64,000 bases of DNA from Bacteroidota bacterium (GTDB taxonomy: Bacteria > Bacteroidota > Ignavibacteria > Palsa-1295). The notes under the pieces were generated by a model. The model made no database searches, had not been told where the DNA came from, and saw only the letters and a list, made by a program, of their open reading frames with translations. Shown piece by piece: positions 3,545 through 46,896 of this stretch. The stretch covers positions 22,612 to 86,611 of the forward strand of contig JAJPIO010000011.1 in the NCBI GenBank assembly GCA_021324735.1. The letters run 5' to 3'. How positions within the stretch are numbered: position 1 is the first letter of the stretch; the number at the start of each line of letters is the position of its first letter. The translations under genes and the position numbers were made by a program.

Positions 3545-3994
3545 TTGGGAACTAATTTTGACCTTTTTGTTGTTATATTAATGTTGATTTTCTTCCTTAA
3601 GAAAAATATGCTTAAATTACATCAAATCTCCCCTCTTAAATTCGGTCGGTCATCTAATGCTCTTCCCATTGAAGACTCGTTCGAAGACACTACTTCCTAT
3701 GCCGACGAGCCCCTATTCGAAGATAACTTCGATGAATTACAGGACCTCGATGAGGATGATCTCGATCATTACGACGATGCATTCCCCTTCTCGGAAGGTG
3801 ATCTCCGCTTTCTGCGGGACTTCATTCTGAGCTCTGCCACCTACGTGGAAGAGCTGGAATCTCTCGTCTGTGATAGCTCGGAGGATTTCTGGGAAGCGCG
3901 TGAACATGCATATCGCATTGTCACTGCGGCGCTTATTAATTACTTCCTCTATGAGATGGAAGAGACAGCCTCCGAAGCAGACTACCGAGACTAA
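3545..3994 (+). CDS. Highly acidic hypothetical protein; first gene after the AT-rich island boundary
   Basis: ORF of 149 aa, or 128 aa if translation starts at MLKLHQ (3609). About 30% D/E (EDSFEDTTSYADEPLFEDNFDELQDLDEDDLDHYDD...). It is preceded by a 200-bp AT-rich promoter-like stretch and sits directly upstream of the large terminase, co-oriented with it. Confidence 0.5.
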   Translation: MGTNFDLFVVILMLIFFLKKNMLKLHQISPLKFGRSSNALPIEDSFEDTTSYADEPLFEDNFDELQDLDEDDLDHYDDAFPFSEGDLRFLRDFILSSATYVEELESLVCDSSEDFWEAREHAYRIVTAALINYFLYEMEETASEADYRD

Positions 3995-4081
3995 CCCTAA
4001 GCACAACCCAGGACTTCTCGGACCTCGGGTATTGCATTATCGTGACCCGTAGGTCCGGGGAAGTCCAACAAATCTTCTCTT

Positions 4082-5674
4082 ATGCCTAAGAAAAACCACC
4101 AAAATAAAGCTGGCCCTAAAAGCAAACCAAAAAATAAGGCAGACCCCAAACCAAAACGAACCGAAATTGAAACAGAACGAAATAAAGAACCGCCTCTCGA
4201 TCCGGTCACTCTCGATCTTCCGTCCTTCGCCGAAAAACTTCTCGATGTTCAATGCTGGCAAAAAATGCGTGAGATCTTCGATCTTGTAGAACGCGGCGAG
4301 CGCAAAATTTTAGTGCGCAGTTGCAACGGCGCTGGCAAAACCACCGCACTCGCCGCCATCTGTAATTGGTATTTTACTCACTACGATGATTCGATCGTAT
4401 TGACCACTGCTTCATCGTGGATTCAAGTACGAAGAAATCTCTGGGGCGAAATTCGACGACAAGCACGAAAGGGAAGGCTGTATTTGGATAAGGATATTAT
4501 TCGCGGCCCGACGAGCGTGCAAGCAAGCGACAAACATTTTATGATCGGCATTTCGCCGAATATCCCGGAGAACGCGATGGGCTTTCATGCACCGCACATG
4601 CTCATCGCTGTGGATGAAGCGACCGGGATCGATCACGAGATCGTGACCGCACTTCTCGGTAATCTCAGCAGCACCAATTCACAGATCGTCATGATCTGCA
4701 ATCCCATCGATAAAGATTCATATCCCTATGAAGCCGAACGCTCCGGTGAATGGAAGGTCGTTTCTATTTCCGCCTTCGATCATCCGAATGTGGTAGAGAA
4801 TTGCGAGGTCATTCCGGGTGCGGTCACCCGCGAGTGGATCGAGGACAGCGTTCGCGCATGGTCGTTCGAAGTGACTCCCGATGCATCCGAACCGCTTACA
4901 ACGCTACAGATCCCGTGGACCGACAAATGGTACCGGAGTAATGCGCCCGTTCAGGCTCGCATACTTGGCGAGTGGGCTCAGCTCGAGTCTGCAGGATTTA
5001 TTCCGATCGAACTCATCGAACGCAACGTGCGGAAAACACCATCCCTGTTTGGAGAACCTCATCATCAACCCTCTTCCGACACACGGCCACGAATGCGCGT
5101 TATGGGCGTTGATATTTCTCGCGGTGTTGGCAGGGATGCGACGATCTACGCATACTTCGATGTCGTCCCGGATGGACCTGATGTGCAGCGGCAGTTTCTC
5201 AGGACCTACGGTGATGACCTCATGCGAACTGCGGATCGGATACGGACGGAATACGAAAACGCTAAAGCACAAGGTATCGAACTTGTTATTGCGCTCGATG
5301 ATACTGGCTTAGGAGGCGGCGTGAGCGACCGATTGAAACGCATTGACATACCGTTCTTTCCGGTAAACTTCTGTCAAAGGCCGCACGGCTTTATTCGAGG
5401 TAAAGATATTGCGAACGCGAAAGCCGAAATGTTTTTCATTCTTCACGATGAACTGCTCGAAGGCAAAATTCAGATCGTCGACCTGCCGCGATTCCATCAG
5501 GAGTTATCTTCCATTCGCCTGGATGTAAGTAAAACTTCAACGGCCTACAAAATGGAAGACAAAGAGGAAACCCGCAAGCGCCTCCATCGTTCACCCGATT
5601 ACGCCGATGCTACGGCGCTCGCGCGATATGCTCTCTGGCTTCACAAATATTCGAAGAAGAATTGGTTGCTCTGA
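4082..5674 (+). CDS. terL: Phage terminase large subunit (ATPase plus RNaseH-like nuclease) with a Lys/Pro-rich N-terminal extension
   Basis: Walker A motif VRSCNGAGKTT and Walker B motif LIAVDEATGI. The C-terminal nuclease region contains MGVDISRGVGRDATIYAYFD and ALDDTGLGGG acidic residues. The first ~60 aa are KKNHQNKAGPKSKPKNKADPKPKR. Confidence 0.85.
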   Translation: MPKKNHQNKAGPKSKPKNKADPKPKRTEIETERNKEPPLDPVTLDLPSFAEKLLDVQCWQKMREIFDLVERGERKILVRSCNGAGKTTALAAICNWYFTHYDDSIVLTTASSWIQVRRNLWGEIRRQARKGRLYLDKDIIRGPTSVQASDKHFMIGISPNIPENAMGFHAPHMLIAVDEATGIDHEIVTALLGNLSSTNSQIVMICNPIDKDSYPYEAERSGEWKVVSISAFDHPNVVENCEVIPGAVTREWIEDSVRAWSFEVTPDASEPLTTLQIPWTDKWYRSNAPVQARILGEWAQLESAGFIPIELIERNVRKTPSLFGEPHHQPSSDTRPRMRVMGVDISRGVGRDATIYAYFDVVPDGPDVQRQFLRTYGDDLMRTADRIRTEYENAKAQGIELVIALDDTGLGGGVSDRLKRIDIPFFPVNFCQRPHGFIRGKDIANAKAEMFFILHDELLEGKIQIVDLPRFHQELSSIRLDVSKTSTAYKMEDKEETRKRLHRSPDYADATALARYALWLHKYSKKNWLL

Positions 5675-5678
5675 GTTT

Positions 5679-5850
5679 GTAGCCGTAGTTCGTAGCCGTA
5701 GCCTTCAGGCTACGCCGTAGGAATAGGCACCCTTACAAATCGTGCGAAGAATCTTCGATGTTCACCAATTGACAACCGTGTTGGCTTCCCACAGCCGCAA
5801 GCTAAAGCATGCGGCTACAATTCGTAGCCGTAGCCTTCCTAAAGCATGAA
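5679..5850. repeat. Dispersed intergenic repeat R1 (~135-bp family; contains hairpins CGTAGCC-ttca-GGCTACG and CCGCA-agctaaagca-TGCGG)
   Basis: About 75% identical over ~135 bp to 7337-7475 (R3). The core ccccacagccgcaagctaaagcatgcggctacaatt is identical to 6575-6612 (R2). Confidence 0.7.
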
Positions 5851-5871
5851 AAGCGAGAACGGCTTATGACG

Positions 5872-6348
5872 TTAGTTCGGCGCGATGAGGTAGCGAATAC
5901 TGCCTTGTATCTGGACGGAATCGTCGGGTAGTCCAACAGGCGACTGAATTGCAGTGATGGAGAATACGGTCGTATTGCCGGTATTGCTTGTCGGTGTGGG
6001 TGCGAAACTCACACCCCACCAGCCATCGCTCGCCTCCTGTGGTATCACATCGTAGCCAGAAGGTGGCGGAGGGTCGAACGTCATCACCATCGGTGGCTTT
6101 CCATCCGCACGTTTGGCCGGATCCGCCCACCTAAAATAAAGGCGGTAGAGCGTGGTGCAGTCACCTGCGGCCTTCGGAGACTTGAGGGTATAAGCCGCGG
6201 TGTATGAGATTGTAGTATTTAGTTGAGCGGTCTGAATATCGCCGCTGCAATCATCCGGAGGCGCGACGTTCCCGCTCGAATCATGACAACTGATATTCGT
6301 GAGCACCAGGACGGCGAGCACACACATATACAACAGAAGACGTTTCAT
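5872..6348 (-). CDS. Lipoprotein of unknown function (moron-like), paralog 1
   Basis: Signal peptide with a lipobox (MKRLLLYMCVLAVLVLTNISC). Shares the motif Y..YFRWADPAKRADG..PP with the downstream paralog. Confidence 0.55.
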   Translation of the reverse strand: MKRLLLYMCVLAVLVLTNISCHDSSGNVAPPDDCSGDIQTAQLNTTISYTAAYTLKSPKAAGDCTTLYRLYFRWADPAKRADGKPPMVMTFDPPPPSGYDVIPQEASDGWWGVSFAPTPTSNTGNTTVFSITAIQSPVGLPDDSVQIQGSIRYLIAPN

Positions 6349-6574
6349 ACAACCTCCGACAAGAAAAAAATGACAACTCTCAGAGCAAATATACAATGCT
6401 ACTTAATGGGCAGTGCAAAAAATCAGGATGGACAGTTGTCAAAACATATAACAAAGGCCGGTAAGGACGTGCGTTCAGCGGAGCCCGCGCGCGTGAGCGC
6501 AGTCGAAATCGGTACACAACCATAATGATGCTCGCAAACGCCGGGCTCGATATGTGGCAGATAACATTACCCGC

Positions 6575-6612
6575 TCCCCACAGCCGCAAGCTAAAGCATG
6601 CGGCTACAATTT
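6575..6612. repeat. Repeat R2 (core hairpin unit of the R1/R3 family)
   Basis: Exact copy of the R1 core ccccacagccgcaagctaaagcatgcggctacaatt. It ends in TACAATTTG. Confidence 0.65.
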
Positions 6613-6621
6613 GCGGCGACG

Positions 6622-7158
6622 CTACTTCTTCGGGAAGTTATTGTAAAAATAAATTCGGCAGACGATCTCTGTGCTATCGATGGCGGCGGCCTCCCAGTCG
6701 AGCCGGCAACCAACATAATACTGCGTAGTGGGATAACCGCTGTTCTTATTACCGATGTTGAAATCGATCACCCACCAATCTCCCATAATGAGATTTCCAT
6801 TAGCATCCATAACCGTATCACGACGAAACACGGGCGCGGGATGTGGAAAGTAAGCAAACTCGGCCAGCGGCTGAAAGGCATGCTCCAAATTTAGGAGCGG
6901 TGGCATATCGTTATCGATCGCGCGCTTGGCTGGATTCGCCCATCGAAAGTTGAAGATATACTCGGCTTCACAATCGTTGCGGGCCGTTGGCGTTTGAAGT
7001 TCGAAAAATTCGCCGTTATTATGTATGACCTTCTGAGCGATCACGTAATGCCCGCCCCCGCAATCGTCATTAACCGTAGCTTCCGAACCGGTTTTGCACG
7101 CCGAGAGCGCCATCGCAGTTAGCAGAAGAGAAAAGCGAACCATGCTATGAGTATTCAT
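6622..7158 (-). CDS. Lipoprotein of unknown function (moron-like), paralog 2
   Basis: Signal peptide plus lipobox (LLLTAMALSAC). The motif YIFNFRWANPAKRAIDNDMPP is paralogous to the 5872..6348 product. Confidence 0.55.
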   Translation of the reverse strand: MNTHSMVRFSLLLTAMALSACKTGSEATVNDDCGGGHYVIAQKVIHNNGEFFELQTPTARNDCEAEYIFNFRWANPAKRAIDNDMPPLLNLEHAFQPLAEFAYFPHPAPVFRRDTVMDANGNLIMGDWWVIDFNIGNKNSGYPTTQYYVGCRLDWEAAAIDSTEIVCRIYFYNNFPKK

Positions 7159-7336
7159 AATACTCCTCCTTAAGTCAGAAGGAAAATGCGCAAGCTAAAT
7201 GCCCGCCCGAATTAGGCGTAAATCGCGATTGAAATGGGCACTCCGGCATCGTTAAGCGCTCGGATCTCGGAAGAATCTTACGGGAGGATTAAAAATCTTA
7301 AAAGCTACTCGATACACTTTTGGTGCAGCGGACAAA

Positions 7337-7475
7337 GTTCGTGGCCGTAGCCTTTTAGGCTACGCCGTGGGGAATAGGCATCATCACGAACCCTGCGAAA
7401 GATCTTGTGACGGGTACCAATGACAACCATATCGCTTCCCAACAAACGCAAGCTGAAGCATGCGCTACATCTATT
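7337..7475. repeat. Repeat R3 (full-length homolog of R1)
   Basis: Collinear with R1: GGCCGTAGCC-tttta-GGCTACGCC hairpin, then gaataggca...tgacaacc...cgcaagctgaagcatgcgctaca. Confidence 0.7.
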
Positions 7476-9138
7476 CGATGCATTTCGGAGGCCGTTGAAA
7501 ATTCGAATCTGTGGCGATACGCTCTTGAAACGCCCTCGCTATATCGCTATAATGTGGCGAGCGGGTATCAACGAAGAATTCAAGCTCGTACAGATAGGGC
7601 ACGAGTGCAATAGGCACATAATTCCGAAATTCCGGGGACTGAGCCAACAGTGAATATTGTGATCCAATTAACCCGTGTCCTTCTTCAAAAATAGACTGAC
7701 ACGTATCCTGTGTATTTGTTCTGGGTATGAGTGGCAATATAATGAGGTCCGGTTTTTTCTCTACAATGAAATCGATAACCTGCTGCACATATTTGGCGTG
7801 GGCGATCTCATTCGTGTTAAGGCCGACGGGATCGATATGCCGAAGCTCCGAATAATACGGCAGTTCACCAGCATCAGCCCATGCCAAAGTGATTGAATCA
7901 TGCTGGGGAATGGCCCGCAACATTGTAGCAACTTCGAGATACGTATCGCGATCCGACTTAAGCCAACCGCGTGGTATTCGCATGAAACCCGTAGCAGCCA
8001 CAAACACCGCAATAACGAGAATCCCAAGCACTGTTGCACCACTCATGCGGAGCGCACCCAATCGCCAACAGGAAAGCTTTCGGGCGATACTCCCTGCCCC
8101 CGGTGCGGCAAGGCAAAATAGAATCGCTTCGATCGAAAGCGTGAATCTCCCATACCCGGCCTGCAGAAGATGCGAGAAAAGATAAAACGTGCTGAGCAAC
8201 ACGCACCACAAGAGTGCGCTACGAAGAACCGGGATGCGCCAAATGGCTCGAATACCTAGTATGGCAGGAATAACGAGAATGAGCGTCCGAATGTAAAATC
8301 TTCCGATCGTACCATAGCCCGGGAAAATGCGGCCGAGAAGTGTTTGCGAGGGTGCGGCCGACTGGACAACCTTCACATAGAACGAGTTCGGAAGCAAGTT
8401 GCCAAAATACCATAGCTTCCATAGTGCATATAATATCAACGGCGCAACAAAATAAGCGGCGAAGCTTCGCACCGTTGCACCTCGATCCTCAACTTGTTTT
8501 TGGAACAGGGCAACAAAGAGGAGAACAACACCTAACAGCGCACCCTCTGGTCGCACAAGAGCGGTCAGCGTTGCGAAAACAAATGCGGCATTAAGCCGAC
8601 CCGCTGAAAATGCCCATAGGGCGAACAAGAGCAGCATCACAAATACACTTGATTCGAGGCCGCTGTATGCGTTCATCCACGTCCAGGGATCGAGCAAGAA
8701 CAACACTGAAATCACTAGTGCAACTTTCCGCGCAAACAGAGACAGCGAGCCGGTTTGGATCGAAGCCAGGACCGGGAGAATAATACGATAGATCGCTATC
8801 GCCGACAAGCAAACTGCCAAGACGCCAATAAGCTGCGATACAAGGAGAAGATTAGATCCAAGCGCACTAAATGGCACCAGCAATAGCATATAGAGGAAAT
8901 TGGTGTAGCCTTCCGTATGAGCACCACCGGCATTCCATACGATACCAAGACCTTGTGCTACGTGCTGCGAGTATCGAAAGGTGATATAAGTATCATCGAG
9001 CACATACCCCATTCGCACGGGCCACCACAGCGTCCCAACCAGCAACGCGATCGTAACAAGTACGAACGACGAATTACGCGCAACGAACGGTAATTCGTCG
9101 CGCTTCGGGACTTCCACTTTCGTCGTCACATCTAACAT
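7471..9138 (-). CDS. Polytopic membrane protein, GT-C-fold glycosyltransferase-like (ArnT/PMT/arabinofuranosyltransferase-like)
   Basis: 555 aa with at least 10 predicted transmembrane helices. The N-terminal first-loop motif DDTYITFRYSQHVAQGLGIVWN resembles the DD-containing first extracytoplasmic loop of GT-C glycosyltransferases. It has a large C-terminal soluble domain. Confidence 0.6.
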   Translation of the reverse strand: MLDVTTKVEVPKRDELPFVARNSSFVLVTIALLVGTLWWPVRMGYVLDDTYITFRYSQHVAQGLGIVWNAGGAHTEGYTNFLYMLLLVPFSALGSNLLLVSQLIGVLAVCLSAIAIYRIILPVLASIQTGSLSLFARKVALVISVLFLLDPWTWMNAYSGLESSVFVMLLLFALWAFSAGRLNAAFVFATLTALVRPEGALLGVVLLFVALFQKQVEDRGATVRSFAAYFVAPLILYALWKLWYFGNLLPNSFYVKVVQSAAPSQTLLGRIFPGYGTIGRFYIRTLILVIPAILGIRAIWRIPVLRSALLWCVLLSTFYLFSHLLQAGYGRFTLSIEAILFCLAAPGAGSIARKLSCWRLGALRMSGATVLGILVIAVFVAATGFMRIPRGWLKSDRDTYLEVATMLRAIPQHDSITLAWADAGELPYYSELRHIDPVGLNTNEIAHAKYVQQVIDFIVEKKPDLIILPLIPRTNTQDTCQSIFEEGHGLIGSQYSLLAQSPEFRNYVPIALVPYLYELEFFVDTRSPHYSDIARAFQERIATDSNFQRPPKCIE

Positions 9139-9202
9139 TTGAGAGACATACTAACGCATCCTTCTTCTAATTCATCATTCATAATTCATCATTTCCTATG
9201 AC

Positions 9203-10507
9203 ATGAACCTCAATCTTGGAAAATACTCACTCACATTAAAACGAACGAAGCCTCCGAGCGCACAAGAACGCGCGCAGGCAAGCAGTGTCGGGAGCGGCTT
9301 GTTGCCGTGGCCGCCAGGCGGCGTGCCGGCGGTCTATCCCTCGGCTCGCGAAGATCTCGTCGAAAATTTCCAGCAAATTCGCGAGACCGTTGCTATTTGC
9401 ATGCACGCTCGAAGCGAGGCGATCGGGCGAGGGAAATTTCATGCCCTCGACAGATCCGGTAACGGACCACGGGTAAAAGGTAACGGACCGCGGGTAAAGG
9501 GTAAGGATCCGGCTCAACTAAGCCTTTTCCCATCTCCCTTGTCTAGCGACCATCCTCTATCGAAGCTTCTCGCGAATCCGAATCCGCTCTTCGACATGAG
9601 CGATCTGCTCGAGCTGTCGAGCCAATGGCTCGATGCGACGGGCAATTCGATCTGGTTAAAGGTACGCGATGGCAACGGTACCGTCGTTGAGCTATGGCCC
9701 GCAAGCTCGCTTTCGTTCATCATCGATCGCGGCAACGACGGACTTCCGCTCTCGTACCGCTTCCTGCCTTCGAATACCATCATTCCGGCAAACGATGTCA
9801 TTCATATTCGGCGCCCGGATATTCGGATGAGCCCGTTCTTCGGTCACGGCGTAATTTCGGACATCCTCGATACTGCCAAAGCCGATACGGCGGTCCGTCT
9901 TTTTCAATCTCGATTTTTCGAGAACGACGCATGCCCACGAGCGGTGCTCCGCTGGCCGCCAGGGGCACTTATGACGCAGGACGAAATGGACCGACTTCGC
10001 AATGCATGGGAATCGAAATACGCCTCACCGGCGAACGCAGGGCGCATCGGAATACTGCCGGATGGCGGCGAAGTGCAGCTGCTCGGCTCCGGCGCGAAAG
10101 AGCTCGATTTCTCGCGCTCGAAAGAAGAGCTCCGCAATGCTATTCGCGAGGCGTTTCGCGTACCGAAAATATTTTTTGGCGATACCGATAATGTCAATCT
10201 TTCGAATGCGGAAACGAGCTATTCGGTCTTCATGCGCGATGTCGTCGATCACGCGCTTGCCAAACATGCGCAGGCGCTTACGCGCGGATTAGCCGCGGAA
10301 TTCGAATCACCCGATCGCCCGGCTGGAAATATCATCATCGAGCATGAATCGCTCGTGACCGAATCCGACGATCGATTCCTCGCTCGTGTAGCGGAGCTAA
10401 AACAAGCGATGACGATCGACGAACAGCGGGCCCTTGTGGGACTCACTCCGCTCTCCAATGGCCGCGGCAACGCCTTTATTCTTGGAAATCAGATCATTGC
10501 TCCATAA
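9203..10507 (+). CDS. Phage portal protein (HK97-family-like)
   Basis: 434-aa ORF in the terminase-portal-protease-capsid order. The central and C-terminal regions are portal-like. It contains an 18-bp tandem repeat encoding GNGPRVKGNGPRVKG. Confidence 0.8.
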   Translation: MNLNLGKYSLTLKRTKPPSAQERAQASSVGSGLLPWPPGGVPAVYPSAREDLVENFQQIRETVAICMHARSEAIGRGKFHALDRSGNGPRVKGNGPRVKGKDPAQLSLFPSPLSSDHPLSKLLANPNPLFDMSDLLELSSQWLDATGNSIWLKVRDGNGTVVELWPASSLSFIIDRGNDGLPLSYRFLPSNTIIPANDVIHIRRPDIRMSPFFGHGVISDILDTAKADTAVRLFQSRFFENDACPRAVLRWPPGALMTQDEMDRLRNAWESKYASPANAGRIGILPDGGEVQLLGSGAKELDFSRSKEELRNAIREAFRVPKIFFGDTDNVNLSNAETSYSVFMRDVVDHALAKHAQALTRGLAAEFESPDRPAGNIIIEHESLVTESDDRFLARVAELKQAMTIDEQRALVGLTPLSNGRGNAFILGNQIIAP

Positions 10508-10508
10508 T

Positions 10509-11069
10509 ATGAATATCCTCCACAAACAACTGATCGCAACCTCGGTCGATACTGCGCCATTGCCACACTCCGTTCGCAAGGACGGCAACATGAACCCTCG
10601 TCAGCGGTGGCTAAAGATGGCGACCGGCGACGTCGACCGAGCCGGTGACATTATCGTGATCGCCGGAATCGAGGCGGATAACTTCCTTAAGAATCCCCAA
10701 TTCCTCTGGCAGCACGGCGCGTCCGGCTCGCTCATCAATACGATCGGCCGCATTCTACAATTAGTACAAGCCGAGAATGCGCTCTATGCTCTCGCCGAAT
10801 ATGCGTCCGCCGAGCTATCACCGCTTGCCGAACAAGTCTATCAAATGGATGTGGCTGGCCTGCTGCCTGCCAATTCGATCGGCTTTCGTCCGCTTGAATA
10901 CGAAGCGAATGAGTTCGGCGGATTCACTTTCACCAAATGGGAGCTCGTCGAATGCTCCAAAGTCGAACTGCCGATGAATCCAAATGCAGTGGACAACGGA
11001 GAGTGGAGAATGGAGAACTCTCTCTCTTCGGGTTCTGCAGATCTTGCAGTCGTTTGGCTGCTCCAATAA
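10509..11069 (+). CDS. Prohead maturation protease, HK97 family (peptidase U35)
   Basis: DRAGDIIVIAGIEADNFLKNPQFLWQHGASGSLINTIGRI matches the U35 signature (D..GD.i..GAF...L...P.LLW.H....PIG). The start codon overlaps the portal stop (TAATATG). Confidence 0.7.
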   Translation: MNILHKQLIATSVDTAPLPHSVRKDGNMNPRQRWLKMATGDVDRAGDIIVIAGIEADNFLKNPQFLWQHGASGSLINTIGRILQLVQAENALYALAEYASAELSPLAEQVYQMDVAGLLPANSIGFRPLEYEANEFGGFTFTKWELVECSKVELPMNPNAVDNGEWRMENSLSSGSADLAVVWLLQ

Positions 11070-11141
11070 ATGCGATACGTATCTGATAAGCAACGTATCC
11101 CAATTCTCCATTCACCACTCTCCATTCTTCATTTTTTTTAT

Positions 11142-11210
11142 GAGCGTAAGCTAAAGCATACGCCTACGAATTCACCCCTACGAGCGTAAGCTGAAGCTTA
11201 CGACTACCAC
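11142..11210. repeat. Repeat R4 (two tandem hairpin units of the R-family)
   Basis: GCGTA-agctaaagca-TACGC and CGTAAGC-tgaa-GCTTACG. Stems stay paired through compensatory substitutions relative to R1-R3. It lies between the protease and capsid genes. Confidence 0.65.
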
Positions 11211-11231
11211 ATTTCTCTTTAGTTTTTTCCA

Positions 11232-12497
11232 ATGAATATCAACGAACAAGACAACACCATCACCGCAACACGCGACGAATTCAATACCATCATCGACAAA
11301 GCGCTCGACCGAAAACTCAAGTCAATCCCGGATCGAAGCGCCATAACTGCGCTCAGTTCTAAGTCCTCAGTTCTTAGTTCTGAATCGGGAATATCTCCAT
11401 CACTCGGGAGCACTCAGGACTCAGCACTTAGCGCTAAGATTCAGAAGACATTTCGATTCTTCAATGCTGTAGCGCAGAACGATCATGCCACACTGCGATC
11501 GATCATGCAGAGTTACGAGCCGGAATACGTTCGTACACTTTCGCCGCAGGTCGAAGGAACGGCCTCTGCCGGTGGCTATCTCGTGCCACCGGAATTCTAC
11601 TCCGATGTTCTCTTCCTGCTGAACGAATACGGCTTCGCACGTAAGTATTGCGCGCAGATCCAAATGTCGTCGAACGTGCTGAATGTATCGACGCTCACCG
11701 GCAAGCCCTCCGTTTCGTGGGTAAGCGAGACCAGCACGATCCCAACCAGCAAAGGCACCTTCGGACGCCTCACGCTCACCGCGCAAAAGCTGGCAGCCAT
11801 CTATCCGATCTCTAACGAACTCCTGCAGGACGCGAATGTCGATGTCTACAATACGATTCTTCGCATCTTTGTCGAAGTTTTCGGCGCGGAGGAAGATACC
11901 CAGGTCTTCCGCGGCGTTGGCTCTCCGTTCACCGGCATTCTCAACACCGACGGAGTATCGACCACTTATTTAGGCGCAAGCTCGACCTCCGGTAAAACGA
12001 AATATACTGATATCACGCTCGACGATCTCATCAATCTCGTTCAGTCGATCGGTCCGGCGCAGCAGCGCGACGCCGTGCTCTTTGTCGAGCAAAACACGCT
12101 CACCGATCTTCTCAAGAAAAAGGATTCGCAGAGCCGCTACTTGTGGGATATTGCAACGTCGAACGACCCACAGATTAGTGGCGCGAATGGATTCAGCGCA
12201 ACGAACCTGAAATTCCACGGATATCCGGTGGTAGCGCTGCCAAACGGAGTTATCATCGAGAGTTATGATGGCTCGAGCCACCCGAGCACACCATTCGCAC
12301 TCTTCGGCAACCTCAAGACAGCCGGCTGTTGGCTTGGCTCGCGCGGCGGAATGGAAATGCGTATTTCCTACGACGCTTCCTCCGATAACATGAACGCCTT
12401 CACCAACGATCTGCAGCTTCTCCGTGTGACGGAACGCATTGCCTTTGGCGTCGGCCAGCCGGGATACCTTGCGGTGCTTTCAACGAGTGCGTCGTAA
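11232..12497 (+). CDS. Major capsid protein, HK97 fold, with an N-terminal delta/scaffolding-like region
   Basis: 421 aa. The motif SAGGYLVPPEFYSDV is characteristic of HK97-family capsid proteins. The N-terminal ~100 aa are predicted helical and fit a delta domain. The gene follows the protease. Confidence 0.85.
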   Translation: MNINEQDNTITATRDEFNTIIDKALDRKLKSIPDRSAITALSSKSSVLSSESGISPSLGSTQDSALSAKIQKTFRFFNAVAQNDHATLRSIMQSYEPEYVRTLSPQVEGTASAGGYLVPPEFYSDVLFLLNEYGFARKYCAQIQMSSNVLNVSTLTGKPSVSWVSETSTIPTSKGTFGRLTLTAQKLAAIYPISNELLQDANVDVYNTILRIFVEVFGAEEDTQVFRGVGSPFTGILNTDGVSTTYLGASSTSGKTKYTDITLDDLINLVQSIGPAQQRDAVLFVEQNTLTDLLKKKDSQSRYLWDIATSNDPQISGANGFSATNLKFHGYPVVALPNGVIIESYDGSSHPSTPFALFGNLKTAGCWLGSRGGMEMRISYDASSDNMNAFTNDLQLLRVTERIAFGVGQPGYLAVLSTSAS

Positions 12498-12500
12498 CCT

Positions 12501-13082
12501 ATGCCTACTTTTACTTCTCCAGTGACCGTCGCCGATCTGCAGACGTATCTGCGAGACGTCTCGACGGACACGACCCTTCTCGGCTTTTACCAAACGCTGC
12601 TCGATACCGCGACCGAATCGGTCTACACCTGGCTCGACCGCGATTATACGGCGCTTGCAACGAAGACCGATCGCTTCTGGGGCGATGATACCGAGTTCTA
12701 CGCCCCGCATTATCCCGCGGGCAGCTTCGTGAGTTGGAGCTATATCGATATGAACGGCTTCGTCACCAGCCTCGACATTAGCGATCTCCTCATTCGAGCC
12801 AATGGCTATCTCGTGCAGGCAAAAACAAAGCGGTTCGTTTCGGGCGCAGAACATGCGATCACGTACAAGCAGCCCGCCACGCTCGTATGCCCGGAAACCG
12901 TAAAGCAGGTGATCGTCGAGATCGCAGCCCAGCTCTTCGATGAGAGCAATCAAGGCGCCGGCACACGCGGACTCTTATTGGCTACATCCAACGATGGCAT
13001 AAGCACCGATCGTGAGCGCTTCCTCGACCTCTCGGAGCGACACAAAGAAATGCTCCGGCCTTACAAACGCTATCCGGTCTAA
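12501..13082 (+). CDS. Head-tail connector/adaptor (gp6-like) with extra C-terminal sequence
   Basis: The N-terminus VTVADLQTYLRDVSTDTTLLGFYQTLLDTATESVYTWLDRDY matches the gp6-like connector pattern. At 193 aa it is about twice the usual length. Located directly after the capsid gene. Confidence 0.55.
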   Translation: MPTFTSPVTVADLQTYLRDVSTDTTLLGFYQTLLDTATESVYTWLDRDYTALATKTDRFWGDDTEFYAPHYPAGSFVSWSYIDMNGFVTSLDISDLLIRANGYLVQAKTKRFVSGAEHAITYKQPATLVCPETVKQVIVEIAAQLFDESNQGAGTRGLLLATSNDGISTDRERFLDLSERHKEMLRPYKRYPV

Positions 13083-13163
13083 CAATGCTGAAGGATGGAT
13101 TATAAACGGCGAGAGAAGCTCTCACAACCGATCATAATTCATCCTTCCTAATTCGCAATTCCC

Positions 13164-13607
13164 ATGACAAGAGAACTTCTCTTCTTCAATAACTTCGAGA
13201 CACAATTTGGCGAGTTTAGCGGGTGGCGTTCGCTTGCCGAGCAACGCGGTGTGAAAGATCTTGCACCCGGCGATTATCCTGGCTTCGAGGTCACTCCGGG
13301 CGAAGCCCGATATACCGAATACGATACCTACGGACATCCCTATGGCGGCGAGCAGGATTTTACGCTTCGCATCGTCTTCGCGCATCCGCAGTGTGCATTC
13401 CAACCGGTGCGTACGATGCACGCGGAGTTCGTCTCGCTCGTCGAGCAGTTTTTTACCGGCGGATACATCTCGCCAACGCTCGATCTCAGCGATCGCGCGC
13501 GGATCAATGGTATCACACTGCTCAAGATCGAATCACCGGTCACGAATAAGATCGCCACGCATACCACCATCATTGTGCGAGCACAATACTCGTTCACATT
13601 AATATAA
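13164..13607 (+). CDS. Hypothetical phage structural or head-completion protein
   Basis: 147-aa ORF co-oriented in the morphogenesis operon. It is preceded by the conserved ATAATTCATCCTTCCT upstream motif. No recognisable domain. Confidence 0.45.
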   Translation: MTRELLFFNNFETQFGEFSGWRSLAEQRGVKDLAPGDYPGFEVTPGEARYTEYDTYGHPYGGEQDFTLRIVFAHPQCAFQPVRTMHAEFVSLVEQFFTGGYISPTLDLSDRARINGITLLKIESPVTNKIATHTTIIVRAQYSFTLI

Positions 13608-13644
13608 AACAGAAGACGGAGTGATGAATGGTGAGTGATGAACG

Positions 13645-14178
13645 GTGAATGATACTTTCCGGCGACGCCTATTTCAGCCTACCTTTACCCTTACCCTTTA
13701 CCCCATACCCTACTCTATCCTCTGTCATCTATCCACTACCCTGATGACCAATCTCTTTCTTCGGTATCGCATGACCGATACCGACCCGTGGACCACATTT
13801 CCGGACATCACCAGCGCGTTTCCCGGTCAGCCTACGGGCAGCTTGCCGGTCTCTTCCACGACCATCGCAAGTGAGCCGCTTACCGTCGAGCCCGGCGCTG
13901 GTGGACAACTCTATCTCGAATTCCCTACCACCGACGACGACCATCTTGCCCTGCGGGTAACATGCCCGCCTATTCCTCTCGCGTTAGCAACGACGATCCT
14001 AACATTCCTCATGCAATATCGTCTTGCGCCATCGCATGAAGCAAAGCACGAGCGGTTCGGGCAAGGTGGCTTCATCAGTGCTTCACTTTCGCTCATCAAA
14101 GCGCAGGAGCGCAATGGCATGCTGCATTTGGAGTTTCGCCTTGTAGCAACGATGAACGATGCTCTAATCAACTTCTAA
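13645..14178 (+). CDS. Hypothetical phage protein; the start codon may be internal (13744 or 13771)
   Basis: ORF in the operon with no motif. Alternative in-frame ATG codons lie closer to a plausible N-terminus. Confidence 0.4.
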   Translation: MNDTFRRRLFQPTFTLTLYPIPYSILCHLSTTLMTNLFLRYRMTDTDPWTTFPDITSAFPGQPTGSLPVSSTTIASEPLTVEPGAGGQLYLEFPTTDDDHLALRVTCPPIPLALATTILTFLMQYRLAPSHEAKHERFGQGGFISASLSLIKAQERNGMLHLEFRLVATMNDALINF

Positions 14179-14179
14179 T

Positions 14180-14794
14180 ATGCTCTATACTCTCTTATTA
14201 CTCGCACTCTCGCCCACCACGTCCGTCGAGCAAGCGGTACAACACGCTTTAGCAGCGGATTCCCTCGCAGCCCGGCAAACAATGCTCGTTCCTTTTCGCG
14301 AAGAGATCGACCGTGCGGCCGCAAAATACACACTGCCCTCTTCGCTTATTGCTGGTGTTATACAGGAAGAATCTCGCTTCGATGAATGGGCGACGAGAAG
14401 CGAACCCGGTTATCTCGCGAACAAACGCATTCGGCATGAAGCGATACGCTGGGCGCGCGTGCATCCCGGCAGCGCGACCGCACTCACCGAACTCAACGAT
14501 CGCTCCCGATCGTACGGCCTCATGCAGATCATGGGTGAGACCGCACGGCAGCAGGGCTGCTCAATGCGGTTCCTCGCTGAACTCTACATGCCCGACAGCG
14601 CTATCGATCACGGTGCGCGATTACTGAAACGCCTTATCCTTCGGTATCACGGCGATACACTTTCGGCTATCAGCGCGTATAACCAGGGCAGTGCACGTAA
14701 GCGGCGCGGCACATTCGCTAATGCTCGTTATGTCTATCGGGTAACCGTCGCATGGCGCGCGTACGATACTCTCTTCCGGAAAGGAGATGAGTAA
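14180..14794 (+). CDS. Lytic transglycosylase (SLT domain) with signal peptide
   Basis: Catalytic motif AGVIQEESRFD, plus GLMQIMG and SAYNQG. Has an N-terminal signal peptide. Confidence 0.8.
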   Translation: MLYTLLLLALSPTTSVEQAVQHALAADSLAARQTMLVPFREEIDRAAAKYTLPSSLIAGVIQEESRFDEWATRSEPGYLANKRIRHEAIRWARVHPGSATALTELNDRSRSYGLMQIMGETARQQGCSMRFLAELYMPDSAIDHGARLLKRLILRYHGDTLSAISAYNQGSARKRRGTFANARYVYRVTVAWRAYDTLFRKGDE

Positions 14795-15291
14795 TGCAGA
14801 TCAAATGGCAATATGCAGCAGCGCTCGTTGGCATTGCTTTCTTCATTGGTGTGCTGATCTCTTACAGAAGCTCTGCACCAACAACCAACGGCATCTCACA
14901 CGAGAAGCAAGTCTACCGGATGAGATTTGACACTGCGAAAACAACTGTGGCTGTGCCAGTGGGACGCATACGACTACGAGGACCGATGGCGCACAAACTG
15001 GCTGCTGATTCTACAACAAGCATCGCGTGCTTAGATACTATTCTGAGAATGGATACTACGGCCTTAGCGCCGGATACCCTCTCTGTTTGTTTTGCGCGAG
15101 ATACCTTCTCACTTCGGTTGGGCTTTAGCCCGAGGCAGAAAGAAGTATCGGTGCCGTATATCGCACACGATACATTCTACTCGCAGATCGATACGATCCG
15201 TATTGCCGGGGGAAGCTCGCGAGCGTGGTACGATGATGCGCTTATTATCATCCTTTCTATTGCCGCAGGAATAATTCTGGGACGGCTATAA
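14794..15291 (+). CDS. Membrane protein with N- and C-terminal transmembrane helices (possible lysis accessory)
   Basis: Translationally coupled to the transglycosylase (TAATG overlap). Transmembrane helix at residues 8-24 and a C-terminal helix ALIIILSIAAGIILGRL. Confidence 0.45.
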   Translation: MQIKWQYAAALVGIAFFIGVLISYRSSAPTTNGISHEKQVYRMRFDTAKTTVAVPVGRIRLRGPMAHKLAADSTTSIACLDTILRMDTTALAPDTLSVCFARDTFSLRLGFSPRQKEVSVPYIAHDTFYSQIDTIRIAGGSSRAWYDDALIIILSIAAGIILGRL

Positions 15292-15325
15292 GAATGCGAT
15301 AAAAAGCATAGCCATAAAAAGAGAA

Positions 15326-15354
15326 CGGGTAACGAGCATATCACTCGTTACCCG
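15326..15354. terminator. Bidirectional intrinsic terminator between the head module and the convergent cargo gene
   Basis: Perfect 11-bp inverted repeat CGGGTAACGAG-catatc-CTCGTTACCCG, flanked by T-rich or A-rich tracts on both sides. Confidence 0.6.
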
Positions 15355-15378
15355 CTTCTTATTTGCGTTACTTAACCT

Positions 15379-18300
15379 TTAATCCTTCTGCAGGATAAAC
15401 TTACGAATGACCGTATAACCGTTCATCGTAATGCGCGCGAAGTACGTGCCTTCGGACATATTCTGCGTCGGAATGGAGAGCGTATGTTCGCCCTTCTCCA
15501 TCGGGCCATTTGCAATCTGCGAAACCGAAGCACCGAGCAAGTCAACCACATCGACCGAGACGTTCGCTTCGAGGTTCGTCGTGAATTTCAGCGTAGCCGC
15601 ACTCGAGCCTTTATGTGCCGGATTCGGAATGACCTCGATGCCCTGCATCGGCTGTAGCTTGCCTTGCAACGCGATCATCATGATCGAATCCGAACATGTA
15701 AGATTGAGTCGGACTGGCACTACGTCGCCAGCCGATTGAGCAGACATGCTGCAACGACCAAAGTTTGGATCGGACTGGTTGAACGCCGATTGGCCAATGC
15801 TAACCGTACCTTGGTCAGTATTACTGATGGAAGGCACCATTGTAACTGTCGCAAGATCGGAATTCGCTGGAAGACCAGTATTGGGAATACCTGTAATCTT
15901 GATTACCATTGGTCCCGTCGCACTAGTCGATTGATCAGCTGCAGTTGCAACGCTTTGTATCGGCTTGTTCCTCGTTAAAATACCGGTTGGATACTGAAGC
16001 TGAATTGTGAGATCCGTCGCACCAGTACCTGCTGGTATCGGCTCAACATTAATGATTTTAAAGACCGCCTGTTGTACGCCATCCACTCTAATCGGCATTG
16101 CATTCGATGAAGCATCGAGTGCCAATCCAAGATGAATATTATACTGTGAGCCCGTCGTCACACCAATTAGATGCAGCGTCACTGTTCCGTGATCGGTATT
16201 GATAGTTAGTATATCGTTATCGCTACCGGTTGCATCGGGATTGTATTGTAAAGTGATCTGAATGGATTGACCACTGGTTAACGTGACGGGACCCGTAAAC
16301 CCGCTCAGTGAGAACTTACTTCCGCCTGCCAACGACACATTGTTAACGATCACGGTACCGTTATTCGCAGTTATCGTATAGGTCTTTTTCAATATCACAC
16401 AACGCGGTGTCGAGTAATTACTATCGAGCGGTTGCGGCCCGAGCGTAAATGTCGTCACCTGATGCGTCGAGCAATCGCGGAAGGTTACCGAATACGGCTC
16501 CGTGATCGTGCGGCCGCTGATATCTGTCAGTGTGATCGTGCCGGAAAGCGTCTGTCCAACAGTACCGGTAAAGTGTACTGTAAAGACCTGGTTACTGCCG
16601 GTATTGATCGTCACTGGAAGCGTCGGGCTTGCGAGGCTTACCCCACTACCAGCCGCGAAGGTCTGAATGATGAACGGCAAGCAATCGCCGCCATTAGCGA
16701 CCGTAAACGTGAGATCGGTATCGCCACACGGGTTAGCCGCGAGCGCCGTCGGAAGTACGTTGGAGACGATCGAAGGAGGCAATATTTTACCGATCACCGT
16801 GAAGGATGTGCTCGGCGCCTCTTGTCCGCCAGTGCTCGTAACCCCAAACGTGATCTGGTCGGTATCGCTAGCTCCGTTTACAGTAGTATCCGAAAGCGAT
16901 TGCGGCTTCAGACACACCGTAAAGTGCAGCGAGTCCTTTGCACGGATCGTATCATTGTCAAGCGTTACCCGGAACGCCGCATGGGTCGGTCCCGTCAGGA
17001 GCCGGATGAGGCCAGGCGTACACGAGGTATTCAGTATCGTACCGCGAATACAGTTCGAATCGCAATAGCGGATCGTGCCAAGAGCTAACGTGTCCGGTCC
17101 ACCGATTGAGGCGACTACACCGGTTATGCAATGTGCGTGCATACCAATGATCTGCGGTCCTTTGGTATCTTCCGCATACGTCAGGACGATACTTCCGGTG
17201 TTATCCTGATCGCTGCCCGTGCAGGAGCACGGAATATAGCGAATCGTGATCGCCGTATCGTGGCCAGGTTTGAGTGAGAACGGCAGCGTCGGTCCCGACA
17301 CCATTTGGAAATTCGAAGCGCCCGTCAACTGGATCTTCGTCAATGTGAGCGGCACGCAGACCGGGCTGATCTTTAGCGTTCGCGTTTGTGACGAATCACA
17401 GCAACTGACCCCTCCAAATTCGATCTTACTGGGGCTTACCGCCCCTTCATACGTAATAGCATTTTGAACATTGAATGAGACCGAGATAGAGGTATCAAAG
17501 TGTTCAACAGAGGCACACTGAGTACCAGTGGTCCCGACATTGAAATGGAATGTAAAGGTCGCGTTATGCTGTCCCGGATCACACTTGGGAATAAGTACCG
17601 GTATCTTGAGCAGATTATATGGTCCGATCTTGATCGGGAAGTGCAAGGGCGGCTTCGACCCAAGGCTATCGATCTGGAAGTAACTGCCCTGCGGACCTGT
17701 AACGTCGATACCTTGCAAGATAATGGTATCGCAGGTCGTATTGAGGAAGTAGACCGCTGAATCATGGATCGAGCAGCAGTCTTTTACATTCTCGTTGAAC
17801 CCTCGAAGTGTTACGCCAACCGTCGTCGTCGTTACACCGGTCACACTGAAGCTAGTCCCGACAAAGGTGGTATCGCATCGTGCTCGCACGTTAACACCAA
17901 TGCTGGGCGCTTGACCAGGCGTCCTTCGTAGAGTGCCAGCAAAGTACACGTGTACATCGGCGCAATCGCCAGGTCCTAAACGGAAGGGCGTTGACGGCGC
18001 AAGTAACTGGATGATACATTGATCGCCGGTAACATCGAATCCGTCGACCTGCATGTTTTCACAACAACTTTGATTACAGATCTGGAGGACGGTATCAAGC
18101 TGAGTACACGCTGGCTCTCGAATATTGATCTTATTCGGAACAGCAGTAATTTTCGATGCAACACCAGCGCCAGTCACGTGGACAATAGTATCTACCGGTA
18201 CGCCATTACGAGTAAAATGGAAATGGTAATCTGCCGCATCGGACGACGGTGTTGTCGGTCGATATTGAATATCGATCGACGTGCTAACTGGAAGCGACGG

Positions 18301-46722: not shown

Positions 46723-46822
46723 CCGTTATATCAAAAAACTTTCTTTATTCAACTGCTCGGCAAACGCTTCACGCTGGCCATTTCCACTGGTCCCAAGTCA
46801 TGGGCTCACGATCGAATGAAGC

Positions 46823-46896
46823 GCGCCCGGAAGGACTCGAACCCTCAGCCTTTGGAACCGGAATCCAACGTTCTATCCAGTTGAACTACGGGCGCC
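46823..46896 (-). tRNA. tRNA-Arg (anticodon CCG)
   Basis: Manual fold gives acceptor GCGCCCG/CGGGCGC, D-stem GTTC/GAAC, anticodon stem TTGGA/TCCAA with loop TTCCGGT (anticodon CCG), and T-arm GAGGG-TTCGAGT-CCTTC. Discriminator is G. No encoded CCA. Confidence 0.85.

Follow-up and report, generated by a model that had tools for sequence, protein, structure and literature searches.

The DNA analysed here is a stretch of 64,000 nucleotides from contig JAJPIO010000011.1 (hereafter the window), in which a phage-derived head module sits in a Kapabacteria chromosome. Its genes are arranged in the order terminase large subunit (TerL), three minus-strand open reading frames (ORFs), portal, prohead protease, major capsid protein, head-tail adaptor, several small ORFs, and a protein with an SLT domain. 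Short hairpin-forming repeats lie in the spacers between TerL and the capsid gene. An earlier note, made from the sequence alone, had described them as a dispersed intergenic family and had listed several possible roles, ranging from an RNA element or a regulator binding site to a mobile repeat. We conclude with good confidence that these repeats are GTAG-tagged repetitive extragenic palindromic (REP) elements, that they comprise two head-to-head REP dimers (REPINs), solo and tandem units and one decayed remnant, and that they belong to a family linked to tyrosine transposases associated with REPs (RAYTs).

The core of the repeat, CGYAAGCTRAAGCWTRCG(N)CTAC, occurs five times between 5796 and 11207, always on the plus strand, at 5796-5818, 6585-6607, 7447-7468, 11145-11167 and 11185-11207. 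The motif AAGCTRAAGC has five matches in the 64 kb, compared with 0.20 expected, and a search for the 19-nt core with up to three mismatches returned the same five plus-strand sites, compared with 0.39 expected. When the whole window was scanned with a covariance model with the filters switched off, exactly seven units were found, with scores of 25-36 bits, namely the five right arms at the core sites plus one left arm at 5689-5717 and another at 7338-7367. The model was trained on all window units except 6582-6610, and the scores in the window thus follow by construction; the informative part of the scan is that nothing besides the units exceeded 11 bits, the best other match in the window reaching 10.7 bits. 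All four copies of the earlier note were recovered at or near the positions given there, and the last of these sites holds two units, which are arranged in tandem at a distance of 40 nt from start to start.

The units have a uniform anatomy. On the minus strand, each right arm consists of GTAG, zero or one nucleotide, a 7-bp stem and a TTYA loop, whereas the left arms have the same form on the plus strand, with the tags GTAG at 5692 and GTGG at 7341. On the plus strand, therefore, CTAC follows all five right arms after zero or one nucleotide, and GTAG or GTGG precedes the two left arms by one nucleotide. The stem comprises 7 bp in all seven units of the window, and folding yielded hairpin free energies of -6.6 to -14.6 kcal/mol. 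In the predicted fold, an outer stem is followed by an A.A mismatch (which is an A-U pair in the fifth copy) and by two G-C pairs, with a URAA tetraloop at the tip. The stem variants that had been quoted for the copies are correct. In contrast, what had been taken for a constant loop of 10 nt is composed of the mismatch, the two G-C pairs and the tetraloop, and the mismatch and the G-C positions covary in other genomes.

Four of the units form two head-to-head dimers of about 127 nt with the tags pointing outward and with spacers that are about 70% identical. As the earlier note had seen, both of these long copies contain a second hairpin (CGTAGCC-TTCA/TTTTA-GGCTACG) together with a long collinear sequence, which amounts to about 130 nt. 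A consensus fold computed for both REPINs gives support to no more than the terminal hairpins; to judge the spacer, two sequences are too few. The segments 5784-5822 and 6573-6611 are identical at 38 of 39 positions. The degenerate remnant at 5824-5848 looks like an internally deleted REPIN, in which the 5' half of a left arm was fused to the 3' half of a right arm. One copy had been reported to end in the Bacteroidetes -7 promoter element TAnnTTTG; however, TACAATTTG has three bases between TA and TTTG and, therefore, does not match this element. The region 6604-6614 reads CTACAATTTGC, and no plus-strand gene follows. The coordinates of all features are compiled in the table.

Table. Repeat units and neighbouring genes in the window (positions count from the first nucleotide of the window; REP and REPIN are used according to the interpretation given in the text).
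Feature	Positions	Strand	Details
REPIN 1, head-to-head REP dimer	5692-5818	.	TerL gene (convergent; stop codon 5672-5674) on one side, lipoprotein ORF 1 on the other
REPIN 1, left unit	GTAG 5692-5695	+	then C, CGTAGCC 5697-5703, loop TTCA, GGCTACG 5708-5714
REPIN 1, spacer			about 81 nt between left and right units
REPIN 1, right unit	CGCAAGC 5796-5802	-	then loop TAAA, GCATGCG 5807-5813, G, CTAC 5815-5818
Partial GTAGCCGTAG	5679-5688		ahead of REPIN 1
Degenerate remnant GTAGCCGTAGCCTTCCTAAAGCATG	5824-5848	+	covariance model 8.9 bits
Solo REP unit	6573-6607	-	stem 6585-6591, loop TAAA, stem 6596-6602, G, CTAC 6604-6607, plus 12 nt of REPIN spacer
REPIN 2, head-to-head dimer	7341-7468	.
REPIN 2, left unit	GTGG 7341-7344	+	then C, CGTAGCC 7346-7352, loop TTTTA, GGCTACG 7358-7364
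REPIN 2, right unit	CGCAAGC 7447-7453	-	then TGAA, GCATGCG 7458-7464, CTAC 7465-7468
Solo REP unit	11145-11167	-	CGTAAGC TAAA GCATACG C CTAC
Solo REP unit, perfect 7-bp stem	11185-11207	-	CGTAAGC TGAA GCTTACG A CTAC
Terminase large subunit (TerL)	4082-5674	+	phrog_2, 1.1e-25
Two paralogous lipoprotein-like ORFs (1 and 2)	5872-6396, 6622-7158	-
555-aa membrane protein	7471-9138	-
Portal; prohead protease; major capsid protein	9203-10507; to 11069; 11232-12497	+

The exact pattern GTAG N0-1 CGYAWGCTTYAGCTTRCG was scanned in one genome per species (596 Gb in total). More than 118 loci (136 hits) were found, compared with about two expected by chance (596 Gb x 2 strands x 2 gap variants / (4^18 x 2^4)). 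The matches listed span about 20 phylum-level lineages, with taxon names as recorded. They include Bacteroidota (with many Hymenobacter), Ignavibacteria, two Kapaibacterium metagenome-assembled genomes (MAGs), Planctomycetota, Acidobacteriota and Omnitrophota, and also Brevinematales, Binatia, Chloroflexota, WOR-3, Calditrichota, Zixibacteria, several proteobacterial classes and one genome of the candidate phyla radiation (CPR). Several single genomes yielded many loci; in one 5.1-Mb contig of Terriglobia, six blocks are distributed between 0.06 and 4.6 Mb. Common to the window and the other genomes are the hairpin and the tag only, i.e. about 23-28 nt, and the REPIN spacer of the window was not found in the loci of other genomes. 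Among viral contigs, the hairpin pattern yielded eight single hits, which is about the level expected by chance.

The hits in other genomes are mostly intergenic. Among the matches listed, the genes on either side are unidirectional in 41 cases, convergent in 23 and divergent in 11, and the median distance to the upstream stop codon is 30 nt. These positions match published REP distributions (PMC3733652). In a search that did not require pairing, 56 of the 136 hits had a partner arm of the form GTAG...TTYA within 110 nt upstream, and in 44 of these 56 partner arms at least six of the seven stem positions were paired. Close pairs were in head-to-head orientation in 51 of 78 cases. The stems of the partner arms vary and yet stay paired (CGCAGGC/GCCTGCG, CGCAACC/GGTTGCG, CGCGGGC/GCCCGCG, CGCAGAC/GTCTGCG, CTCAACC/GGTTGAG). 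The same REP unit also forms tandem arrays with a period of 34 nt in a Bacteroidota MAG (L012, 155-244) and in an Ignavibacteriae MAG (L070, 2898-3053).

Conservation of the hairpin was quantified with an alignment (A4) of 41 distinct units, which comprised the window units, partner arms and RAYT-flanking arms; it leaves out six partner arms, which were either unpaired or not in register. Most of the non-window rows carry dummy flanks in unpaired columns, which leaves the pair counts unaffected and biases the flank positions of covariance model R1. In the alignment, 95.1% of the cells were paired, and seven of seven pairs had changes on both sides. The observed covariation score was reached by none of 500 shuffles, and slid registers were only 19-36% paired. 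The tag was invariant or nearly invariant across the 41 units, and the TTYA tetraloop stayed fixed. These results give good support to the earlier claim that the hairpin is maintained by compensatory changes, and they extend it to all seven pairs. The unit of the family is GTAG, zero or one nucleotide, a 7-bp stem with the consensus CGCAnnC/GnnTGCG, and a TTYA loop.

To identify genes linked to the hairpin, all ORFs within 3 kb of the 136 hits were clustered. No neighbouring gene was widely shared within this distance, and 113 of the 118 listed loci had no conserved neighbour. Therefore, the hairpins are not the ends of an insertion sequence (IS), a possibility that was rejected on these grounds. 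However, one small ORF cluster encoded a protein of about 160 aa with HUH (MPDHLH), WQ and Y-x-x-x-NPV motifs. Three of the four members of this cluster matched Pfam Y1_Tnp above the cutoff, the fourth being a 95-aa fragment that remained below it. Two of the three full-length proteins matched the NCBIfam entry NF047646 'REP-associated tyrosine transposase' with 89 bits (cutoff 80), and the third reached 69 bits. The only PDB match was E. coli TnpA-REP (4ER8; E=3.8e-5, low identity). With tblastn, the RAYT gene was found in 5 of the 118 loci listed, compared with about 0.2 expected for a single-copy gene.

The arrangement of the hairpins around these genes was similar in several genomes. In L054, L107 and L031, the RAYT gene lies between a unit of the GTAG-CGCAGGC type and a unit of the CGCAAGC type that ends in CTAC, and these heterologous flanking arms are the same as those of the free dimers. 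In L029 and L041, arrays of units are present on both sides of the RAYT gene, and RAYT homologues in Ignavibacteria and WOR-3 are also flanked by GTAG hairpins of this type. Such RAYT genes flanked by units represent the published REPtron or REPIN-RAYT arrangement (PMC3733652, PMC6006769). The clade with the motifs DHLH, WQ and YI-x-NNPV (about 160 aa) comprised 316 clusters at E<=1e-10, with members in Bacteroidota, Ignavibacteria, WOR-3, Desulfobaccales and Brevinematales that are flanked by one conserved REP type (loci L029, L031, L041, L054, L107 and L132-L136; proteins P0110-P0229). The combination of this clade with one REP type suggests a wide horizontal spread of one REPIN-RAYT system; dissemination of RAYTs by horizontal transfer has been reported (PMC6006769). 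A further inverted pair, in L067, with its arms 1.4 kb apart, encloses a predicted membrane protein of 431 aa, which was not matched by the RAYT queries in tblastn, and was discarded as a candidate.

In having GTAG, zero or one nucleotide, a 7-bp stem and a TTYA loop, the units bear the signature of GTAG-tagged REPs, and, therefore, we read the repeats of the window as REPs. The GTAG-tagged superfamily was described by Di Nocera et al. 2013 (PMC3733652) and includes the E. coli REP/BIME and the Stenotrophomonas SMAG repeats. Its members share with the window family a short imperfect palindrome that has an unpaired GTAG/GTRG tag on one of its sides, a stem of 6-9 bp with a short loop, and sub-families that differ by complementary stem changes. 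They likewise occur mostly as head-to-head dimers with conserved spacers, and they are found immediately downstream of ORFs where the neighbouring genes are unidirectional or convergent, and now and then in frame inside genes. The window family, which was likened to the 24 published families by description, has the stem and loop sequence CGCAnnC-TTYA-GnnTGCG; its host belongs to the Kapabacteria, and its copies are clustered in one stretch of 5.5 kb.

The dimers resemble those of REPIN-RAYT systems (Bertels & Rainey 2011, PMC3116915; Nunvar et al. 2010, PMC2817692) in that two inverted REPs with a spacer span about 130 nt and that the same hairpins lie on both sides of the cognate Y1/HUH transposase gene in other genomes. 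In contrast to these systems, the arms of the window dimers are heterologous (CGTAGCC versus CGCAAGC stems) and do not form a long perfect hairpin. REPIN-RAYT systems are described as mostly vertically inherited, whereas the REP core analysed here is spread over many phyla. For E. coli TnpA-REP (4ER8; Messing et al. 2012, PMC3479197), the 5' GTAG is required if hairpin single-stranded DNA is to be bound and cleaved, and the RAYTs of the hairpin family resemble this protein in their length of about 160 aa and in the HUH (DHLH), WQ and Y-x-x-x-NP motifs. By motif resemblance, they may belong to the short-REP RAYT subclass 2.5 of Quentin et al. 2018 (PMC6006769), whose description was based on Xanthomonads and Pseudomonads and in which the tag is also located 0-1 nt from a short stem. 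A further likeness exists to the subterminal hairpins of IS200/IS605 elements, where a hairpin and a 5' guide tetranucleotide are recognised by a Y1 HUH enzyme on single-stranded DNA; however, most of the hairpin pairs analysed here do not enclose a transposase, and in length the units fall far short of an IS.

Judged by its homology to E. coli TnpA-REP (4ER8, PMC3479197), the RAYT would bind the folded hairpin in single-stranded DNA and would be guided by the 5' GTAG when it cleaves and transfers strands. Recognition of the folded hairpin and of the 5' GTAG by the RAYT would explain why the stem covaries while the tag and the loop are fixed. Hairpin binding and GTAG-guided cleavage could enable the units to spread and to rearrange. 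In the window, the units would have colonised permissive spacers, namely those that directly follow the TerL stop codon and the stop codons of the three ORFs on the minus strand, and the one that separates protease from capsid. The first plus-strand GTAG lies 4 nt past the stop codon of TerL. On the minus strand, GTAG begins 2 nt past the stop codon of the 555-aa ORF, 14 nt past that of lipoprotein ORF 2 and 53 nt past that of lipoprotein ORF 1, and the tandem pair begins 75 nt past the protease stop codon and ends 24 nt ahead of the capsid ATG at 11232. Transcribed units would form stable 3' hairpins, which, like the REPs of E. coli, may have a protective or attenuating effect on the upstream mRNA. 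An influence of this kind would probably be a by-product and not a conserved function of the module.

The module has syntenic counterparts in three other Kapabacteria assemblies (L128, L129 and L130), in which the portals are about 70% identical. A glycogen phosphorylase gene is located upstream of the module in the window, L128 and L130, and a giant protein of about 1,400 aa is encoded downstream in all four assemblies. That the host belongs to Candidatus Kapabacteria is judged from a Por_Secre_tail neighbour and from the source names of several portal homologues. The module, which extends from 3545 to 15356 and encodes an S78 protease, an HK97-type capsid, an SLT transglycosylase and a small ORF of 165 aa, is head-only; tail genes were not recognised in the module of the window, L128, L129 or L130. 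The capsid had no relatives among viral contigs, and exact look-ups with the capsid and the phosphorylase returned no match. The impression is of a domesticated module under vertical inheritance, comparable to a gene transfer agent or to a capsid-only element and unlike a recent prophage. The 555-aa membrane protein is found between TerL and portal in all three syntenic relatives (about 44% identity). In contrast, the two lipoprotein-like ORFs, which each have a signal peptide and a cysteine and are 36% identical over a local alignment of 59 aa, have no Pfam or PHROG match and do not occur in the three relatives; between TerL and the conserved membrane protein they form an insertion specific to this lineage. 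Of the 'moron cassette' proposed in the earlier note, these two genes thus remain as lineage-specific genes, whereas the 555-aa gene is conserved in the syntenic relatives and, therefore, is not a moron.

Several further sequence features accompany the module. A strong bidirectional terminator-like hairpin (15324-15356; 11-15 bp, with T-runs on both strands) marks its end, beside the convergent giant gene. The A/T-rich heptad-like motif ATTCATCATTCATAATTCATCATT and variants of it lie directly upstream of the portal, the capsid and other module genes in several genomes; sites were found in the window (9160-9200, 11104-11131, 10990-11017 and 13618-13649), in L129 (9969-10011 and 12286-12328) and in L130 (9950-9991, 17804-17845 and 18482-18523). 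An inverted ATTCATCATTCATAATTCATCATT copy in the 3' end of the protease gene (10990-11017) pairs with 11104-11131; the arms are 28 nt long with 86% complementarity, and the protease stop codon lies within the 86 nt that separate them. The motif could be the leader or regulatory motif that the module genes really share. Rfam and ARAGORN gave a single match in the window, a tRNA-Arg (CCG) on the minus strand (46821-46895).

The slots that carry repeats in the window were compared with those of the relatives. L128 and L129 do not contain any unit of the GTAG/TTYA hairpin family, and L130 does not contain one in the corresponding intergenic slots. Because the units are absent from the same slots of three syntenic loci, the repeat is not a conserved part of the module. 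Instead, the slots 3' of TerL and between protease and capsid contain, in L128 and L130, an element of about 150 bp with the termini TGTCATCCTGAGCG.../...CGCTCAGGATGACA, and in L129, TerL is followed by a different GTAG dimer and the spacer between protease and capsid comprises only 48 nt. L130 has two dimers of the sister sub-family CRCAAAC/GTTTGYG inside TerL (7192-7264) and inside the variable N-terminal region of the portal (10261-10327); both are in frame and encode GG(A/S)QTKV(R/C)AT. Intragenic REPs are a known feature of the GTAG-tagged superfamily (PMC3733652). The same portal region contains GTAG-GGGCGCATGGCAATGCGCCC units in L128 (10286-10350) and a 21-nt tandem duplication in the window (9458-9499), and the N-terminal loop of the portal looks like a hotspot for palindromic inserts. 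Additional small repeat families were observed in the corresponding spacers of L128 (8208-8338 and 11941-12089), L130 (8153-8204, 12127-12178, about 14200-14320, and 15699-16546) and L129 (about 9850-9960). The types at these sites include the element of about 150 bp with TGTCATCCTGAGCGRAG / CTCCGCTCAGGATGACA termini, elements of the GTCATTCCCGCGAA...GGGAATGAC type, CCCCTCCCGCAAGCGGGAGGGG palindromes, and GTAGGGGCTAATGGCATTAGCCC units.

Three alternatives to a REP/REPIN origin were considered. It is very unlikely that the repeat is a dedicated cis-regulatory element of the phage-derived module, acting either at the RNA level by processing, anti-termination or attenuation, or as the site of a late-gene regulator. 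The stability of the hairpins and the location of every copy in the approximately 70 kb seen inside the module and at gene boundaries, including the protease-capsid junction, would be in line with such a function. However, the same junctions lack the element in the three syntenic modules, where they have unrelated repeats or, in L129, the 48-nt spacer, and the hairpin recurs in unrelated gene contexts in about 20 phyla, with no common neighbour gene except the RAYT among the matches listed. In addition, the orientation relative to the upstream gene varies between the sites, and the half-site covariation speaks against one sequence-specific duplex-binding regulator. Rfam also gave no match to a unit, neither at the gathering score in the whole window nor at E<=5 in 5650-7500 and 11060-11240. 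With slots devoid of the unit in three relatives and the hairpin present elsewhere in about 20 phyla, the module-specific roles listed in the earlier note (late-regulator, anti-termination or processing site) were not retained. The suggestion that the repeat delivered the moron found no support either. A MITE-like mobile repeat (MITEs being miniature transposable elements with inverted repeats), also on that list, came closest, the element being a GTAG-tagged REP/REPIN whose hairpins flank RAYT genes elsewhere. The earlier note had named a generic REP-like element as the outcome that would speak against its proposal, and this is essentially what was found, with the caveat that all copies in the approximately 70 kb seen cluster in the module.

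The units could also be ordinary intrinsic terminators or mRNA-end hairpins that resemble one another through local duplication only and are not mobile. This explanation, to which we give hardly any weight, would account for G+C-rich hairpins located 2, 14 and 53 nt past the stop codons of the three minus-strand ORFs. However, no unit is followed by a U-tract or T-run on either strand, and the terminator scan did not pick up any of them. Furthermore, the same sequence with its tag recurs in distant phyla and flanks RAYT genes, and L130 contains in-frame units inside coding regions. A terminator-like side effect is compatible with the REP/REPIN explanation. The least probable alternative, that attC-like cassette recombination sites of an integron-like system imported the minus-strand lipoprotein genes one by one, is suggested by the elements found one apiece at the 3' ends of the three minus-strand ORFs, 0.8-0.9 kb from one another, and by the lineage specificity of two of these genes, but the element ends in GTAG/CTAC and not in the core sites RYYYAAC/GTTRRRY, no integrase was present among the neighbouring proteins scanned, the third 'cassette' gene (555 aa) is ancestral to the locus, the family is tied to Y1 transposases and not to tyrosine recombinases, and the REP copies are 97% identical whereas the lipoproteins are 36% identical over 59 aa, which shows that gene and repeat did not duplicate together.

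Several observations weigh against the interpretation of the repeats as members of a RAYT-associated REP family. All seven units are located within 5.5 kb, i.e. they are clustered and not dispersed. Contig k141_336394 of ENA ERZ27279670 is 99.99% identical to the window and extends it by 5.9 kb upstream; this extension contains no further copy, and no unit was present in the other approximately 64 kb seen (window plus extension). A RAYT gene was likewise not detected by tblastn in the window or in the additional 5.9 kb. A metagenome scan for the window-specific flank of the right arm returned one unrelated contig of 2.6 kb only. Lastly, a core that is common to about 20 phyla is unusual, most of the REP families described being lineage-specific. 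The local clustering may simply mirror permissive spacers, because the relatives gather other repeats in the same slots.

It is conceivable, but rather doubtful, that the clustering is not accidental and that REPINs of a cross-phylum type are preferentially captured by, or used in, a vertically inherited, head-only module of the Kapabacteria. If targeting were the reason, the locus might be single-stranded or over-replicated when particles are made and might thus be a preferred target of a Y1 transposase that acts on single-stranded DNA. If function were the reason, the hairpins may set transcript ends, and hence gene ratios, around the antisense genes and the protease-capsid junction. If true, the REP core and the RAYT clade common to about 20 phyla would argue for a frequent horizontal spread of one REPIN-RAYT system.

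The current understanding of REPs is unchanged by these findings. They remove a tempting candidate for a new phage regulatory RNA, which can now be filed with the REP/REPIN elements. They also show that REP dimers are able to sit in frame within terminase and portal genes, and that the spacers of a conserved phage-derived module serve as landing sites for palindromic repeat families that differ between lineages. Together, one REP hairpin core and one RAYT clade of about 160 aa are found across about 20 phylum-level lineages, including the poorly studied Kapabacteria, Ignavibacteria, Omnitrophota, WOR-3 and Binatia.

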